A stretch of 64,000 nt of DNA from a virus: positions 1-64,000 of IMG/VR virus record IMGVR_UViG_3300007722_000007; one strand, written 5' to 3'. Made by a program: the position numbers and the translations under genes. Numbering within the stretch: the stretch's first letter is position 1; each line of letters begins with the position of its first letter. The notes beneath the pieces were generated by a model that saw nothing but the letters and a program-made list of their open reading frames with translations, made no database searches and had not been told where the DNA came from. Positions 20,164 through 29,225 of this stretch are shown piece after piece.

Positions 20164-20495
20164 ACCTGATGCCTCACGTTCGCATTGAGAGTCCGAAGGG
20201 CGTCTATGCCGGTACGTAGAGATAACAGCTTTTCGCGTTTGGCCCGAACAAGACCCTCCGATATTTTGTAATCGTAGTTCTCGTCACCCATCTGATAGTC
20301 GGCCCATGCCTCTCGCTCTCGGATTGAACCCTTTGCGCTGAGGTATGATTTGGCCCAATTGGACTTGTATGTTGCTTCTTTTTTTGCCGAATCGACCGCA
20401 AGCGTTTCAAACGCTTCCGTTTCGTCTTCAAGCGACTGGAGCAGTCTAAGAATTTCTTCCTCAACATCGACCTGACTAATCGGGCTATTCCTCAC
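20160..20495 (-). CDS. hypothetical coiled-coil protein (possibly UvsY-like mediator)
   Basis: 111 aa, helical; overlaps both neighbours; function is inferred from context only. Confidence 0.55.
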   Translation of the reverse strand: MRNSPISQVDVEEEILRLLQSLEDETEAFETLAVDSAKKEATYKSNWAKSYLSAKGSIREREAWADYQMGDENYDYKISEGLVRAKREKLLSLRTGIDALRTLNANVRHQV

Positions 20496-21033
20496 TGCGT
20501 ATCCTTTCGTAAACCACGTCTAATTGCTTCCAATCTACAGCCTTAAGTCCCTCTTTGTTGATGCTGGGCCAGCTGTAATTATTTACACCTAAGTGCGTTT
20601 GTGCCATTTCTTCCAGGATCCAGGCATCGCATCGGTCATCTCCACCTTTGCCACTCCAAATAATTCCCGTTCGCGCCGATACCGATGAAACCACTTCGGT
20701 CTTTGAAGCGTTCCCCCGTCCTGTGGCAAATTTCGCACGGCAGGTTGGCGGTATTTCTACAAATGGTATCCCGGCTCTAAATAGGCTTAATCTCACAACG
20801 CCGCCGAGCTCACCAATTGAAAAAGCCTGACCGCTTCGTGAAGCAAAAGAATAGCCCTCAATCAGCGCAACGTCAATAGCGTTTAGGGAAATAATTTTAA
20901 TAATTGATTCGGAGACTTCGTCTAGGCGCTCAACGCCATTCGTGCTGGGCGTTATAACTCCGGTAACCCCGGCGTGCGAATGACCCGTGGATCGTAATGA
21001 TAAATCTAGGCCCAGCAACCTTATATTTCGCAT
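20485..21033 (-). CDS. ruvC: RuvC-like Holliday junction resolvase
   Basis: LLGLDLSLRSTG, ALIEGY, ELGGVVR, KFATGRGNASK and DRCDA motifs. Confidence 0.88.
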   Translation of the reverse strand: MRNIRLLGLDLSLRSTGHSHAGVTGVITPSTNGVERLDEVSESIIKIISLNAIDVALIEGYSFASRSGQAFSIGELGGVVRLSLFRAGIPFVEIPPTCRAKFATGRGNASKTEVVSSVSARTGIIWSGKGGDDRCDAWILEEMAQTHLGVNNYSWPSINKEGLKAVDWKQLDVVYERIRSEE

Positions 21034-21039
21034 AATGGG

Positions 21040-21045
21040 ATACTA
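21040..21045 (-). promoter_or_regulatory. -10 element for a possible leaderless ruvC transcript
   Basis: TAGTAT 6 nt upstream of the ATG with no SD sequence; similar TATGCT 5 nt before the tail chaperone ATG. Confidence 0.35.
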
Positions 21046-21055
21046 GCCGCATTGG

Positions 21056-21092
21056 CAAAAACCCGCCGAACATCTAGCCGGCCCGGCGGGTT
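21056..21092 (-). terminator. intrinsic terminator-like hairpin
   Basis: Minus strand AACCCGCCGGGC-loop-GTTCGGCGGGTT followed by TTT. Confidence 0.6.
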
Positions 21093-21190
21093 GCATGTAA
21101 ATAAATTTACTTATGCGATTTGCCGTAGTTTGCCTACCAGATCTTTGACCACCTGCCCCTCGTTTCGGTTCGGATACAATTTGGCTAGAT
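21057..21190 (-). ncRNA. candidate ~130-nt structured small RNA
   Basis: Extended -10 TGcTACGCT (21197-21205); 5' ATCTAGCC is complementary to 3' GGCTAGAT; ends in the terminator; no credible minus-strand ORF. Confidence 0.35.
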
Positions 21191-21249
21191 AGGTAAAGCG
21201 TAGCATTTGAAAATAGACGATGCCGTAAATAATAATCTAAATATTCACG

Positions 21250-21318
21250 AAATAAATAGGACGCAAAAACCGAGTGAGCTCCCCCACCCGGTCTTTGCGC
21301 CTATAACGGTCCTAAGGC
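21250..21318 (-). ncRNA. candidate small RNA with 5' end antisense to 23S rRNA H69-H71 and a 3' hairpin
   Basis: -10-like TAAACT (21324-21329), then CCTTAGGACCGTTATAG, then a ~20-bp stem (21256-21304). Confidence 0.45.
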
Positions 21319-21408
21319 TCTCTAGTTTACACCCCCAAAAATATGAACCGATAAACAAAGTTATTCATTTTAAAAAATATGAGATGTATACTTGTTTATC
21401 TGCGCCTA

Positions 21409-21711
21409 TTATTCTTCCCAGCCGTGTTTAGCTAGACCCAAGTCAAAAGCTAATTGGGGTTGGTCCCCAATTCTGGAATGACACGGTCTACATACGCACA
21501 TTATATTTTCCTTATCCAAAATCGATCCGCCCTGCGACCGGCGCTTTATCTCGTGCAGATCAGTAGACGGATTGCGCCTGTACATCTTCTTTTCGTCATG
21601 CTGTGCAAAAATCGGGCACGCCTGGCACCATGGGATAGCGGCGAGCATTTCCACCACCAATTTCCGGCGCTCTATATATTTTTTCTGAGTTTTTTCAGAT
21701 CTCTGTTTCAA
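21409..21711 (-). CDS. HNH endonuclease
   Basis: CQAC...DLHEIKRRSQGG...NIMCVCRPCH. Confidence 0.85.
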   Translation of the reverse strand: MKQRSEKTQKKYIERRKLVVEMLAAIPWCQACPIFAQHDEKKMYRRNPSTDLHEIKRRSQGGSILDKENIMCVCRPCHSRIGDQPQLAFDLGLAKHGWEE

Positions 21712-24321: not shown

Positions 24322-26652
24322 TCAGATGATGATAACCGTTGGCCGCCTAAAAGGCAACCCCAAACCAGCTAAATGTGTAAAAGCTCCAACGGCGGAGTCA
24401 ACCTGGTCATCATGGCTACAGGCCTCAGGAAAGGACGACGCCTCGTCAAGCCAATCGCTAAGCCACGGGCCACGGACAAGCCTCACATTGCCGTTGGCGG
24501 CAGCCGCGGCAAATGGCCTGGCTCGGGTTAATTTATCCCCAGTCGAGCGAATTCCTAAAAAATCATGCCCTGGAAGAATATATCTGGCATATTGGTCGAT
24601 AAGGGCCTTCCCAGACGATCCGGGCTCCTGCTCCATACGCACCGCCACACTCGGTCCATCTTCGGCGGCCGTCTGGGCGACCAGACGTTCAACCTTTTCG
24701 CCCTTTACTCTAACTCGCTTAATATCCAATATGTAAAAAATGCCGGATTCAAATAGGCCGAGCGTGCCAACGGTCCAGTCTGGATCCGTGTTCCCGGGAT
24801 GGGGTTCGGTGGCGGCTAAATCCCAAAACCTACAAGCCCTAGCACCCATCCCAGCAGCTGGGACCTCTGAGGGGTCAATAATAACAAAGGATTCTCGGTC
24901 AAATAGGGTCCCCAATGTTGTTGCCCACCAGTCGCCCTCTTCTAGGCGGCGTCGCTCAATTGGATCTAGGGCCGCTAGGGCCATGCGATACGACTCAACG
25001 TCAATGCCGGGGTTATCCGTCAAAAGCGATGGTACAAATATCCGATTTGTAGTGTCGCCCTCAACGATAAATCGCTGCCTGACCCAATTCGGCGCAGGGT
25101 TTGATGCAGCGCGCATCCTCAATGGGACCTTTGACAGTTCGCCGCTAGCCGGTCGACGCAAACGGGAAAATAGATATCTGTAATCCGATTCCCGGATTTC
25201 CGTTACTTCGTCCATCCCAATGAATTGAAACTCCGAGTTTCCAGTCCAGACAACGCGTCCATTGTGTCTAGTTAAAAAGGTGTGATGAGGGGGAACAGTT
25301 AAGCAGTGAACGGTGCCGACGTAATGCTTGGCAACTATTGGTTGTCCATCGCCAAAAGAAATCATTCTATCTTGGTCGGCTGTTTCAAGTAAAAACACAT
25401 GGAACGCCAAAACATCGTGTTCTTTTCCATCGGGCGTAGTGGTGTGGTCCTGGCGCTCATTAAGGGTGGCCCTAAAGCCACAATGCTGTGCAAGCCTCAT
25501 CACGCCATCGGCCAACTCGCGCGAAACAGTTACATAGTGACCACTTTTTTCGGTGCGCCATGTTCCGTCCCCTTCAACCAAGGATTGCAAAAGAAGCCGA
25601 GCGTATTTTGTTTTCCAGGTAAAGACCTCGTCGGGAATCCGTTTGTGATAAGCGCCCTTGCCGGTATGTTCATCCAGCCAGTCGGCGAGTTTTGTATTTG
25701 TGAATACAAGATTCCTGGGGCTATCCCTGACATAAGCACCGGAATGTTCAAGCAGACTCACCAGGACATCCTTGTATGTCCTGCTGTGTCCGTCGTGGAG
25801 CGAAATTTGTATGGTTCCTTTATTAGTACACCCCTCCGCAATATGCCAACCAAGGAAAGTTGCCCAATTCTCTGCGCCGAAAATGATGTCAGAACTATGC
25901 TGTCTGCCTCGCGCCGAACTCGGGAACACGGATGCCCCCGTGTCAATACCGCCAATAAAATGACCCGCCTGTGGGAATCTTGCCGCTATTGGCAATTCAT
26001 CCGTTCTGTATTTGCGAAGTTTCTTTACCCTCTGCGTTGAAACCCACCATGTGTGGTCTGCGGTCACGGCGAACGAAACATCCGAGCCCTCTCTCGGACT
26101 ATAGATTAGTCCGTCGTGGTCATAGACCCACGTATGGGTTACCGATTGATAATCCCATTCTCGTGTTTCCGGATTCATTGAAGCGACCAATTCGCCAACC
26201 TGAATATCTTCTATTTTCCTCCATCCGGAAGTAGTTAAAACCTCTGTTCCCTTAATGCACGGGCCCTTATACCGCTGAAAGTCGTCCTTGTTATTAAGGT
26301 AACCAAAGGTTATTCGCGCCCCCGATGGGAAGGTGGCGATAAAGCTATTGTTGTTCCAGTGTATTTGGTCATTTTCGGCGACCCAGAATTTGAATCTGTC
26401 CATAAGTGCGCCGGGGAGAGATAGGTCCGAGAATGTCCGCCGGAACAAAATGGCCGAATAATTCGGCACGTCCACGTACTGTAGAGCACTCATGAGCAGT
26501 GCGGAACTTTTCCCGCCACCAGCTGCTCCACCAAATAGGGCTTCAAGCGCATAGGTCCGAAGAAAAACCTTCTGCGTGAGCGACGGTTCCTCTAGGCAAA
26601 ACAGCGACGGGCGCGGCTGTAGGTACTCGTAAACTTTCTCCCAATCAGTCAT
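24322..26652 (-). CDS. terL: terminase large subunit, intein-containing
   Basis: Walker A GGAAGGGKS, Walker B FIGMDE, ASNP, and nuclease motifs WDLA and HDDQVD. Confidence 0.95.
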   Translation of the reverse strand: MTDWEKVYEYLQPRPSLFCLEEPSLTQKVFLRTYALEALFGGAAGGGKSSALLMSALQYVDVPNYSAILFRRTFSDLSLPGALMDRFKFWVAENDQIHWNNNSFIATFPSGARITFGYLNNKDDFQRYKGPCIKGTEVLTTSGWRKIEDIQVGELVASMNPETREWDYQSVTHTWVYDHDGLIYSPREGSDVSFAVTADHTWWVSTQRVKKLRKYRTDELPIAARFPQAGHFIGGIDTGASVFPSSARGRQHSSDIIFGAENWATFLGWHIAEGCTNKGTIQISLHDGHSRTYKDVLVSLLEHSGAYVRDSPRNLVFTNTKLADWLDEHTGKGAYHKRIPDEVFTWKTKYARLLLQSLVEGDGTWRTEKSGHYVTVSRELADGVMRLAQHCGFRATLNERQDHTTTPDGKEHDVLAFHVFLLETADQDRMISFGDGQPIVAKHYVGTVHCLTVPPHHTFLTRHNGRVVWTGNSEFQFIGMDEVTEIRESDYRYLFSRLRRPASGELSKVPLRMRAASNPAPNWVRQRFIVEGDTTNRIFVPSLLTDNPGIDVESYRMALAALDPIERRRLEEGDWWATTLGTLFDRESFVIIDPSEVPAAGMGARACRFWDLAATEPHPGNTDPDWTVGTLGLFESGIFYILDIKRVRVKGEKVERLVAQTAAEDGPSVAVRMEQEPGSSGKALIDQYARYILPGHDFLGIRSTGDKLTRARPFAAAAANGNVRLVRGPWLSDWLDEASSFPEACSHDDQVDSAVGAFTHLAGLGLPFRRPTVIII
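25237..26262 (-). mobile_element. class 3 intein (342 aa) with LAGLIDADG homing endonuclease
   Basis: Starts PCIKGTEVLTTSGW; block B TADHTW, block F VHCLTV, ends WTGN|S; endonuclease motifs FLGWHIAEG and LLQSLVEGDG; removal restores RYKG-SEFQFIGMDE. Confidence 0.9.
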
Positions 26653-29142: not shown

Positions 29143-29225
29143 AGCGTTCCACAAATTCCGTAGTTTATTAAAACCGTTCCCGTCAAAAGCGGTTTATTAG
29201 TTTAATATTGTCTATTAAGGACCCC

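Follow-up and report, generated by a model that had tools for sequence, protein, structure and literature searches.

Trans-encoded small RNAs of the RybB, OmrA/B, and prophage DicF type base-pair through a 5' seed and carry a terminator hairpin, and the natural small RNAs known from bacteria and phages have mRNAs or other small RNAs as their targets. Pairing with pre-rRNA is known from U3, from the C/D box and H/ACA snoRNAs, and from the guide sRNAs of archaea. In 23S rRNA, the segment that makes intersubunit bridge B2a contacts tRNA, release factors, and the recycling factor. A synthetic PNA directed against helix 69 blocks translation and growth of E. coli (Kulik 2017, as cited in PMC12828698), and the neighboring helix 70 is cleaved by MazF-mt6 in free 50S subunits and not in 70S ribosomes (PMC5408214). 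Our search of the full-text literature turned up no sRNA from a phage or a bacterium with complementarity to 23S rRNA. Here we describe a phage locus with a candidate for such an RNA.

The window, by which we mean the whole stretch of 64,000 nucleotides that was analyzed, covers the initial 64 kb of a viral contig of 74 kb from IMG/VR whose completeness is estimated at ∼50%. It contains genes for tail sheath, baseplate, portal, and large terminase, and its source is an uncultured tailed phage whose host is probably an actinobacterium. The nearest cultured relatives of the portal protein (35–45% identity) come from phages of Streptomyces, Gordonia, Brevibacterium, and Mycobacterium, and these actinophage relatives make an actinobacterial host likely; the actinophage marker WhiB was sought across the 74-kb record and none was found. 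On the minus strand, from 26.6 kb downwards, the genes run in the order terminase, Rad52-like annealing protein, PD-(D/E)XK exonuclease, an unknown gene, HNH endonuclease, and then, across a 375-nt spacer, RuvC-like resolvase, ParB-like, and PAPS-reductase. The large terminase (24322–26652, minus strand; 776 aa) is split into N- and C-terminal halves by a LAGLIDADG domain, which resembles an intein with a homing endonuclease. On the plus strand, 3' of the portal gene, a run at 29208–63999 holds very large ORFs of 2758, 1257, 1748, 1481, and >2277 aa; no PHROG match was obtained for the 607- and 1257-aa ORFs or for two smaller ones tested from this run.

Judged from its sequence, the HNH–RuvC spacer contains a non-coding small RNA gene of ∼65–70 nt on the minus strand, extending from ∼21317 to ∼21250 (Table 1). 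The original prediction had placed a 17-mer on the plus strand at 21301–21317, a −10-like TAAACT 6 nt upstream of it on the minus strand, and a G-U-containing hairpin of ∼20 bp behind it; the letters of the 17-mer read identically in the sequence, the hexamer is where it was said to be, and the hairpin has 19–22 pairs, G.U pairs among them. On the minus strand, the hairpin folds with −41 kcal/mol (z = −6.4). Bases 1–13 of the 17-nt stretch, which we call the seed, are predicted to be unpaired (P 0.75–1.0), and bases 14–17 are predicted to join the base of the stem. The hairpin is probably an intrinsic terminator that ends the transcript; in the window it is followed by a U-rich tail, whereas across the family only some members have a clean U run, and a large subgroup has a weak one. 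The RNA gene is not coding, as each reading frame is open in at most 16 of 73 family members. Neither box C/D (RUGAUGA, CUGA) nor H/ACA motifs are present in the small RNA sequence. A repeat or scaffold of the CRISPR, omega, or bridge guide-RNA kind is likewise absent, the scaffold being one plain hairpin, and no effector gene for such a guide adjoins, the HNH and RuvC genes co-occurring also without the RNA. Many hairpin loops of the window's layout (type A; alignment A1) have a GGGARAC-like sequence in common despite variable stems, and this loop could be a protein-binding or loop-contact site.

Table 1. Features of the HNH–RuvC spacer and its flanking genes, in the order of minus-strand transcription
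Feature	Position in window	Strand	Basis or remarks
HNH endonuclease gene, 100 aa, upstream neighbor	21409–21711	−	PHROG 15522 (1.5e-15); Pfam HNH; syntenic in relatives
TAAACT, −10-like box of the small RNA gene	21324–21329	−	6 nt upstream of seed
5' seed, 17 nt, exact complement of 23S rRNA 1914–1930	21301–21317	−	Sequence identity; conservation
Long hairpin, 16-pair core common to the family	21257–21304	−	Folding and covariation
U-rich tail 3' of hairpin	21250–21259	−	Terminator scan
Second conserved RNA in the spacer, own box	21057–21205	−	Terminator at 21055–21090; invariant block 21147–21153
TAGTAT box, 6 nt before RuvC ATG	21040–21045	−	TAnnnT box 5–7 nt before start in cassette-carrying relatives
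RuvC-like resolvase gene, 182 aa, downstream neighbor	20485–21033	−	PHROG 159 (1.4e-27); Pfam RuvC; syntenic in relatives

The 17-mer had been assigned to about position 1914–1930 of 23S rRNA in E. coli numbering, and comparison with the annotated E. coli gene bore this out: it is identical to positions 1916–1932 of the annotated 2906-nt gene, which are 1914–1930 in the standard numbering. The matched segment, invariant in bacteria, takes in half of the loop of helix 69 (its 3' side) together with that helix's 3' strand and reaches the first bases leading to helix 70. It is also the core of the homing site of I-CeuI in 23S rDNA, a site of ∼26 bp in all. Identity with 23S ends at exactly 17 nt on both sides. 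This is the longest rRNA match within the window (the runner-up has 14 nt), and the window holds no second site for the seed at up to 3 mismatches. The original prediction cautioned that a lone 17-mer match would have a chance of a few percent, and the arithmetic agrees, with ∼0.03 expected in 64 kb; a chance match is ruled out because the 17-mer unit is conserved across relatives, as described below. The duplex of the seed with 23S 1914–1930 is predicted at −30.6 kcal/mol, and opening the target in an isolated 23S fragment is predicted to cost ∼5 kcal/mol, helix 69 itself being worth −7 kcal/mol.

Covariation of the hairpin supported a structured RNA. RNAalifold gave 16 pairs, 14 of them with compensatory changes; 99.5% of 735 cells were paired, 0 of 500 shuffles matched the observed values, and shifting the pairing partner abolished the covariation signal. 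About 22% of the stem cells are G.U, and as such cells are mismatches on the plus strand, they fix the transcribed strand as minus. In 56 unique upstream regions of relatives, we found G-T-A-n-n-n-T at −13 to −7 and, within it, TAnnnT at −12 to −7, counted from seed base 1. Because this box stands at the canonical −10 position, the RNA would start at the seed or at most 3 nt before it, and the small RNA is predicted to have its own promoter with a defined 5' end. Thus, the G.U pairs and the register of the −10 box both support the earlier suggestion that the minus strand is the one transcribed here.

The exact 17-mer was found in at least 117 IMG/VR viral contig stretches. Among the matches listed, 105 of 117 have the small-RNA layout, 92 of them as type A and 13 in a second arrangement, type B; the remaining matches listed are 11 stretches in five small groups and one real 23S gene (L176, a true bacterial LSU rRNA, with the motif in antisense). 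We also collected loci independently of the 17-mer, by RuvC protein search with two queries and 80 loci for each. The unit of seed and hairpin lay between HNH and RuvC in 51 of the 80 loci related to the window (RuvC 56–67% identical to the window's) and in 32 of the 80 retrieved with the RuvC of a more distant family member (49–100% identical to that query). It was single-copy per locus, always on the RuvC strand and at the HNH–RuvC junction. The original prediction would have been undermined by a 17-mer that was not conserved at the syntenic locus, and in relatives we find it kept there. Across 46 distinct family members, every seed column is either invariant or conserved to 90% or more, and the hairpin varies in sequence and length. 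The unit is absent in 29 of 80 and 48 of 80 relatives and is therefore dispensable. Where it is missing, HNH abuts RuvC directly, and five related contigs without the unit at this junction had no copy elsewhere, which together indicate an optional cassette.

Seed changes in remote relatives are of two kinds: A8G, C1U, A16G, and C9U keep G.U pairing with 23S, and U15C and U12C break pairing. One lineage has its first four seed bases changed, and the seed variants in the family keep only 11–14 contiguous 23S matches. The first locus set had suggested wobble-only variation; this was contradicted by U15C and U12C in the second set, and in view of these mismatches we claim no wobble signature. We also considered U15C as covariation with the host and searched one genome per species (∼185,000 species, 596 Gb) for 23S rRNA with G at 1916, the partner of U15C. 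The search returned 22 matches, of which 4 were real 23S and 18 were chance 17-mers (∼280 expected by chance, as an estimate). With G at 1916 in only 4 of ∼185,000 species, host covariation was rejected, and this rarity makes U15C a tolerated true mismatch with 14 contiguous pairs left.

The same core is found in unrelated phages. Type B follows an endonuclease V gene and has a TATACT box, a small covarying 5' hairpin, the seed, and a terminator, with 18–19 contiguous nt complementary to 23S; in one member the complement is 28 nt long and includes a single U.G, and others resume past a 1-nt bulge. A 5' hairpin, the seed, and a terminator also make up type E, near endolysin, thymidylate synthase, and ribonucleotide reductase genes, with 23 nt (1914–1936), and type F, between NrdA and a DNA polymerase gene, with 20 nt and an extension on the other side (1911–1930). 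The antisense strand precedes the hairpin on the same strand in types A, B, E, and F, and a clean T run is present in B, E, and F. Counted as promoter/terminator settings, at least three others in unrelated phages carry the 23S complement, extended to 20–28 nt. Extensions that track 23S in both directions are not explicable as a protein-binding motif that merely resembles rRNA; together with the independence of the settings, they indicate a selected feature tied to 23S. The gene neighbors vary by lineage (HNH and RuvC, endonuclease V, or NrdA and DNA polymerase), and we saw no conserved protein partner. The anatomy of the gene, its strand, its conservation, and selection on the complementary stretch itself are evident from these alignments.

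Other stretches resembling 23S were also observed. In one type B locus, ∼190 nt past the RNA (L142:3880–3895), 16 nt are identical to sense 23S 2445–2460 in the peptidyl-transferase region; no such stretch occurs in the other type B members, and it may reflect chance (∼0.01 per locus) or a second rRNA-related element. In three phage contig groups (L107:10980–11180, plus strand; L146:6430–6629, minus strand; L082:2440–2642, minus strand), 22–25 nt of sense 23S lie inside tRNA gene arrays. These stretches, 1912–1933 or 1912–1936, have the same orientation as the tRNAs and cover nearly the whole I-CeuI site, and in L107 and L146 the sense 23S piece is followed on its 3' side by ∼200 nt that are conserved and apparently structured. 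A group I intron was suspected in all three groups; Rfam gave no match on either strand, and no downstream exon piece is present.

We consider the chances slightly better than even that the small RNA acts in trans, pairing with 23S 1914–1930, stopping helix 69 from forming or docking, and delaying 50S maturation or subunit joining. Transcription from the TAnnnT promoter would begin at the first seed base or within 3 nt of it, and the first 13–17 bases, being single-stranded, would pair with 23S rRNA 1914–1930. Helix 69 would then be unable to form or to make bridge B2a with the 30S subunit, and 50S maturation or subunit joining would be held back, shifting host translation in the phage's favor. 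In the mature ribosome, position 1915 is an m3-pseudouridine, which is incapable of pairing, and 1919–1925 lie in the helix 69 stem. This modification and the closed helix would make the mature 70S a poor target, and the partner would most likely be nascent 23S rRNA, late pre-50S particles, or free 50S subunits. The cutting of 50S and not 70S by MazF-mt6 and the effect of the PNA both fit this choice of partner. Because a phage needs working ribosomes, plain inhibition would be costly. Expression of the small RNA, its pairing with 23S in the cell, and the resulting effect are what we infer from the comparisons above. The original prediction was of a phage sRNA that pairs with host 23S rRNA, either to alter ribosome assembly or translation or to guide an enzyme; pairing agrees with the strand, the −10 box, the free seed, the covarying hairpin, and the synteny, and the guiding role is left with no apparent enzyme partner.

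The spacer also contains a second conserved RNA with its own box (Table 1). A covarying pairing joins its 5' end (ATCTAGCC) to its own terminator loop. The invariant block and its flanks complement the last 12–16 nt of 16S rRNA, including the anti-Shine-Dalgarno sequence, with one bulge or mismatch and one G.U, and in all members tested it is this block that gives the best duplex with the 16S tail. In energy, the duplex is only modestly better than shuffles (−18.3 versus −13.7 ± 2.4 kcal/mol; 46 of 1000 shuffles were as good), and taken together these features are suggestive of an anti-16S RNA. After the block we found neither a start codon at Shine-Dalgarno distance nor an ORF, and the second RNA had no Rfam match. 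Relatives with the RNA cassette (loci L002–L081, around position 2990) have a TAnnnT box before the RuvC ATG or GTG; in relatives without the cassette, RuvC is preceded by a GGGAG Shine-Dalgarno sequence. A TAnnnT box only 6–7 nt before the start implies a leaderless mRNA, and, judged from 21031–21045 (minus strand), the RuvC message of the window seems to be of this kind.

The second RNA and the leaderless RuvC start lead to a bolder reading, which we regard as doubtful: a two-RNA device against the host ribosome, in which one RNA would grip the 50S subunit at helix 69 and the other the 30S subunit at its anti-Shine-Dalgarno tail. The two would keep host subunits out of initiation led by Shine-Dalgarno sequences, or halt new ribosome assembly, and leaderless phage messages such as that of RuvC would still be read. 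If true, the device would be an RNA-only counterpart of the MazF-mt3 toxin, which cuts both regions.

Several other explanations of the anti-23S RNA have to be weighed against interference with helix 69. The RNA could shield exposed single-stranded 23S from ssRNA-specific defense nucleases (abortive infection toxins of the MazF/RelE type) or guide a host or phage enzyme. Actinobacterial toxins do cut the neighborhood of helix 70 and the 16S anti-Shine-Dalgarno sequence, and only where these are single-stranded (PMC5408214; see also PMC12274833 and PMC12620021); the adjoining second RNA complements the 16S tail; and the closest cultured portal relatives are actinophages. We nevertheless think this unlikely, as the type A seed stops at 1930 and leaves the UUCCU cleavage site near 1940 uncovered, a 17-bp duplex would itself abolish helix 69 function, and a guide would be one with neither C/D nor H/ACA boxes and with neighbors that vary between lineages in place of a conserved protein partner. 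Somewhat less probable still, and quite unlikely in our estimation, is a cis element only, with the hairpin as terminator or processing site for HNH/RuvC, the 5' stretch as a protein-binding or promoter-proximal signal, and the 23S identity incidental or a relic of captured rDNA. The unit does sit at an operon boundary, its hairpin is only ∼20 nt away from RuvC in compact relatives, and seed bases 14–17 join the base of the stem. However, relatives that join HNH and RuvC directly need no terminator there, and RuvC has its own TAnnnT box after the hairpin, placed for a leaderless start, which weakens the idea of a cis-acting leader. Moreover, 17 or more nt recur in unrelated phages with other promoters and terminators, extending along 23S, and decay would be expected of a relic, whereas no part is more conserved than the seed.

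It is also conceivable that the RNA does base-pair but is really directed at an mRNA, a tRNA, or another phage RNA with part of the sequence in common. Seeds of 7–12 nt suffice for such pairing, no more than 11–14 contiguous matches survive in family variants, and all base-pairing sRNAs of bacteria and phages that we know of target mRNAs or other sRNAs. Still, 17 invariant bases far exceed what an mRNA seed needs, the independent extensions of 20–28 nt track 23S exactly, the window offers no second site even with 3 mismatches, and no other complementary RNA in any host comes near 23S rRNA in abundance, all of which makes a different RNA target very unlikely. Most improbable of all is a role at the DNA level, as a homing-endonuclease target or decoy (an alternative that the original prediction had raised), an attachment site, or the cut site of the neighboring HNH enzyme. 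Its attraction comes from the I-CeuI core, from the adjoining HNH gene and the LAGLIDADG intein of the terminase, and from the 22–25 bp of I-CeuI site in the tRNA arrays of other contig groups. Yet selection is strand-specific, with ∼22% G.U pairs, wobble-type seed changes occur, and the −10 box keeps exact register with the seed in a promoter/terminator layout. Only 17 bp of a ∼26-bp site are present, and no intron-like RNA lies beside the unit; HNH is present and unchanged in relatives without the unit; no integrase is nearby; and reference bacterial genomes have no copy.

Database searches did not place the anti-23S RNA in a described family. The Rfam comparison proposed with the original prediction gave 0 matches in the window at the gathering score and only chance-level ones at E ≤10 in 21000–21450. 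In blastn searches with the 851-nt spacer and the 64-nt unit, cultured phage genomes had no homologue, and reference bacterial and archaeal genomes had no copy of the seed with the first hairpin bases, so that there is no lead to a prophage or host. We conclude that the RNA is probably of the base-pairing small RNA kind and that, as far as we found, rRNA as its target class would be new for bacteria and phages. What selection keeps here is an exact complement of a highly conserved, functionally central rRNA segment, that of intersubunit bridge B2a, with the same core in several unrelated phage backbones. If pairing occurs as predicted, it would represent a new route of host takeover and a natural proof of helix 69 as an antisense target; it would also provide a simple universal tool, since a target alike in all bacteria would make it usable in E. 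coli or Mycobacterium smegmatis.

In its plan, the phage RNA resembles the RybB, OmrA/B, and DicF type, with which it shares a predicted promoter of its own, a conserved seed at the very 5' end that is predicted to be single-stranded, a 3' stem-loop (followed in the window by a U-rich tail), a length of 60–80 nt, and the lack of coding capacity. It differs from them in that its predicted partner is rRNA and not mRNA and in that its seed, with 17 invariant bases, is longer than usual. Like snoRNAs and archaeal guides, it is a small RNA with 10–20 nt complementary to a conserved rRNA segment and is predicted to act in ribosome assembly; unlike them, it has no C, D, H, or ACA boxes and no partner protein genes, it belongs to a bacterial virus, and its likely effect would be interference rather than maturation. 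With the I-CeuI site, it shares that site's core, whereas a transcribed, strand-specific RNA is indicated here and only 17 of ∼26 bp are present. The anti-helix-69 PNA (Kulik et al. 2017, as cited in PMC12828698) has the same target helix and is man-made, shorter, and not RNA. Two toxins of Mycobacterium, MazF-mt3 and MazF-mt6, have the same pair of sites, namely the part of 23S around helix 69/70 when the 50S subunit is free and the anti-Shine-Dalgarno tail of 16S, and MazF-mt3 hits both, as the two adjoining phage RNAs would (PMC5408214). These toxins are protein endonucleases that cut, whereas the phage RNAs would only pair, at a 23S site ∼10 nt upstream of the toxin's.
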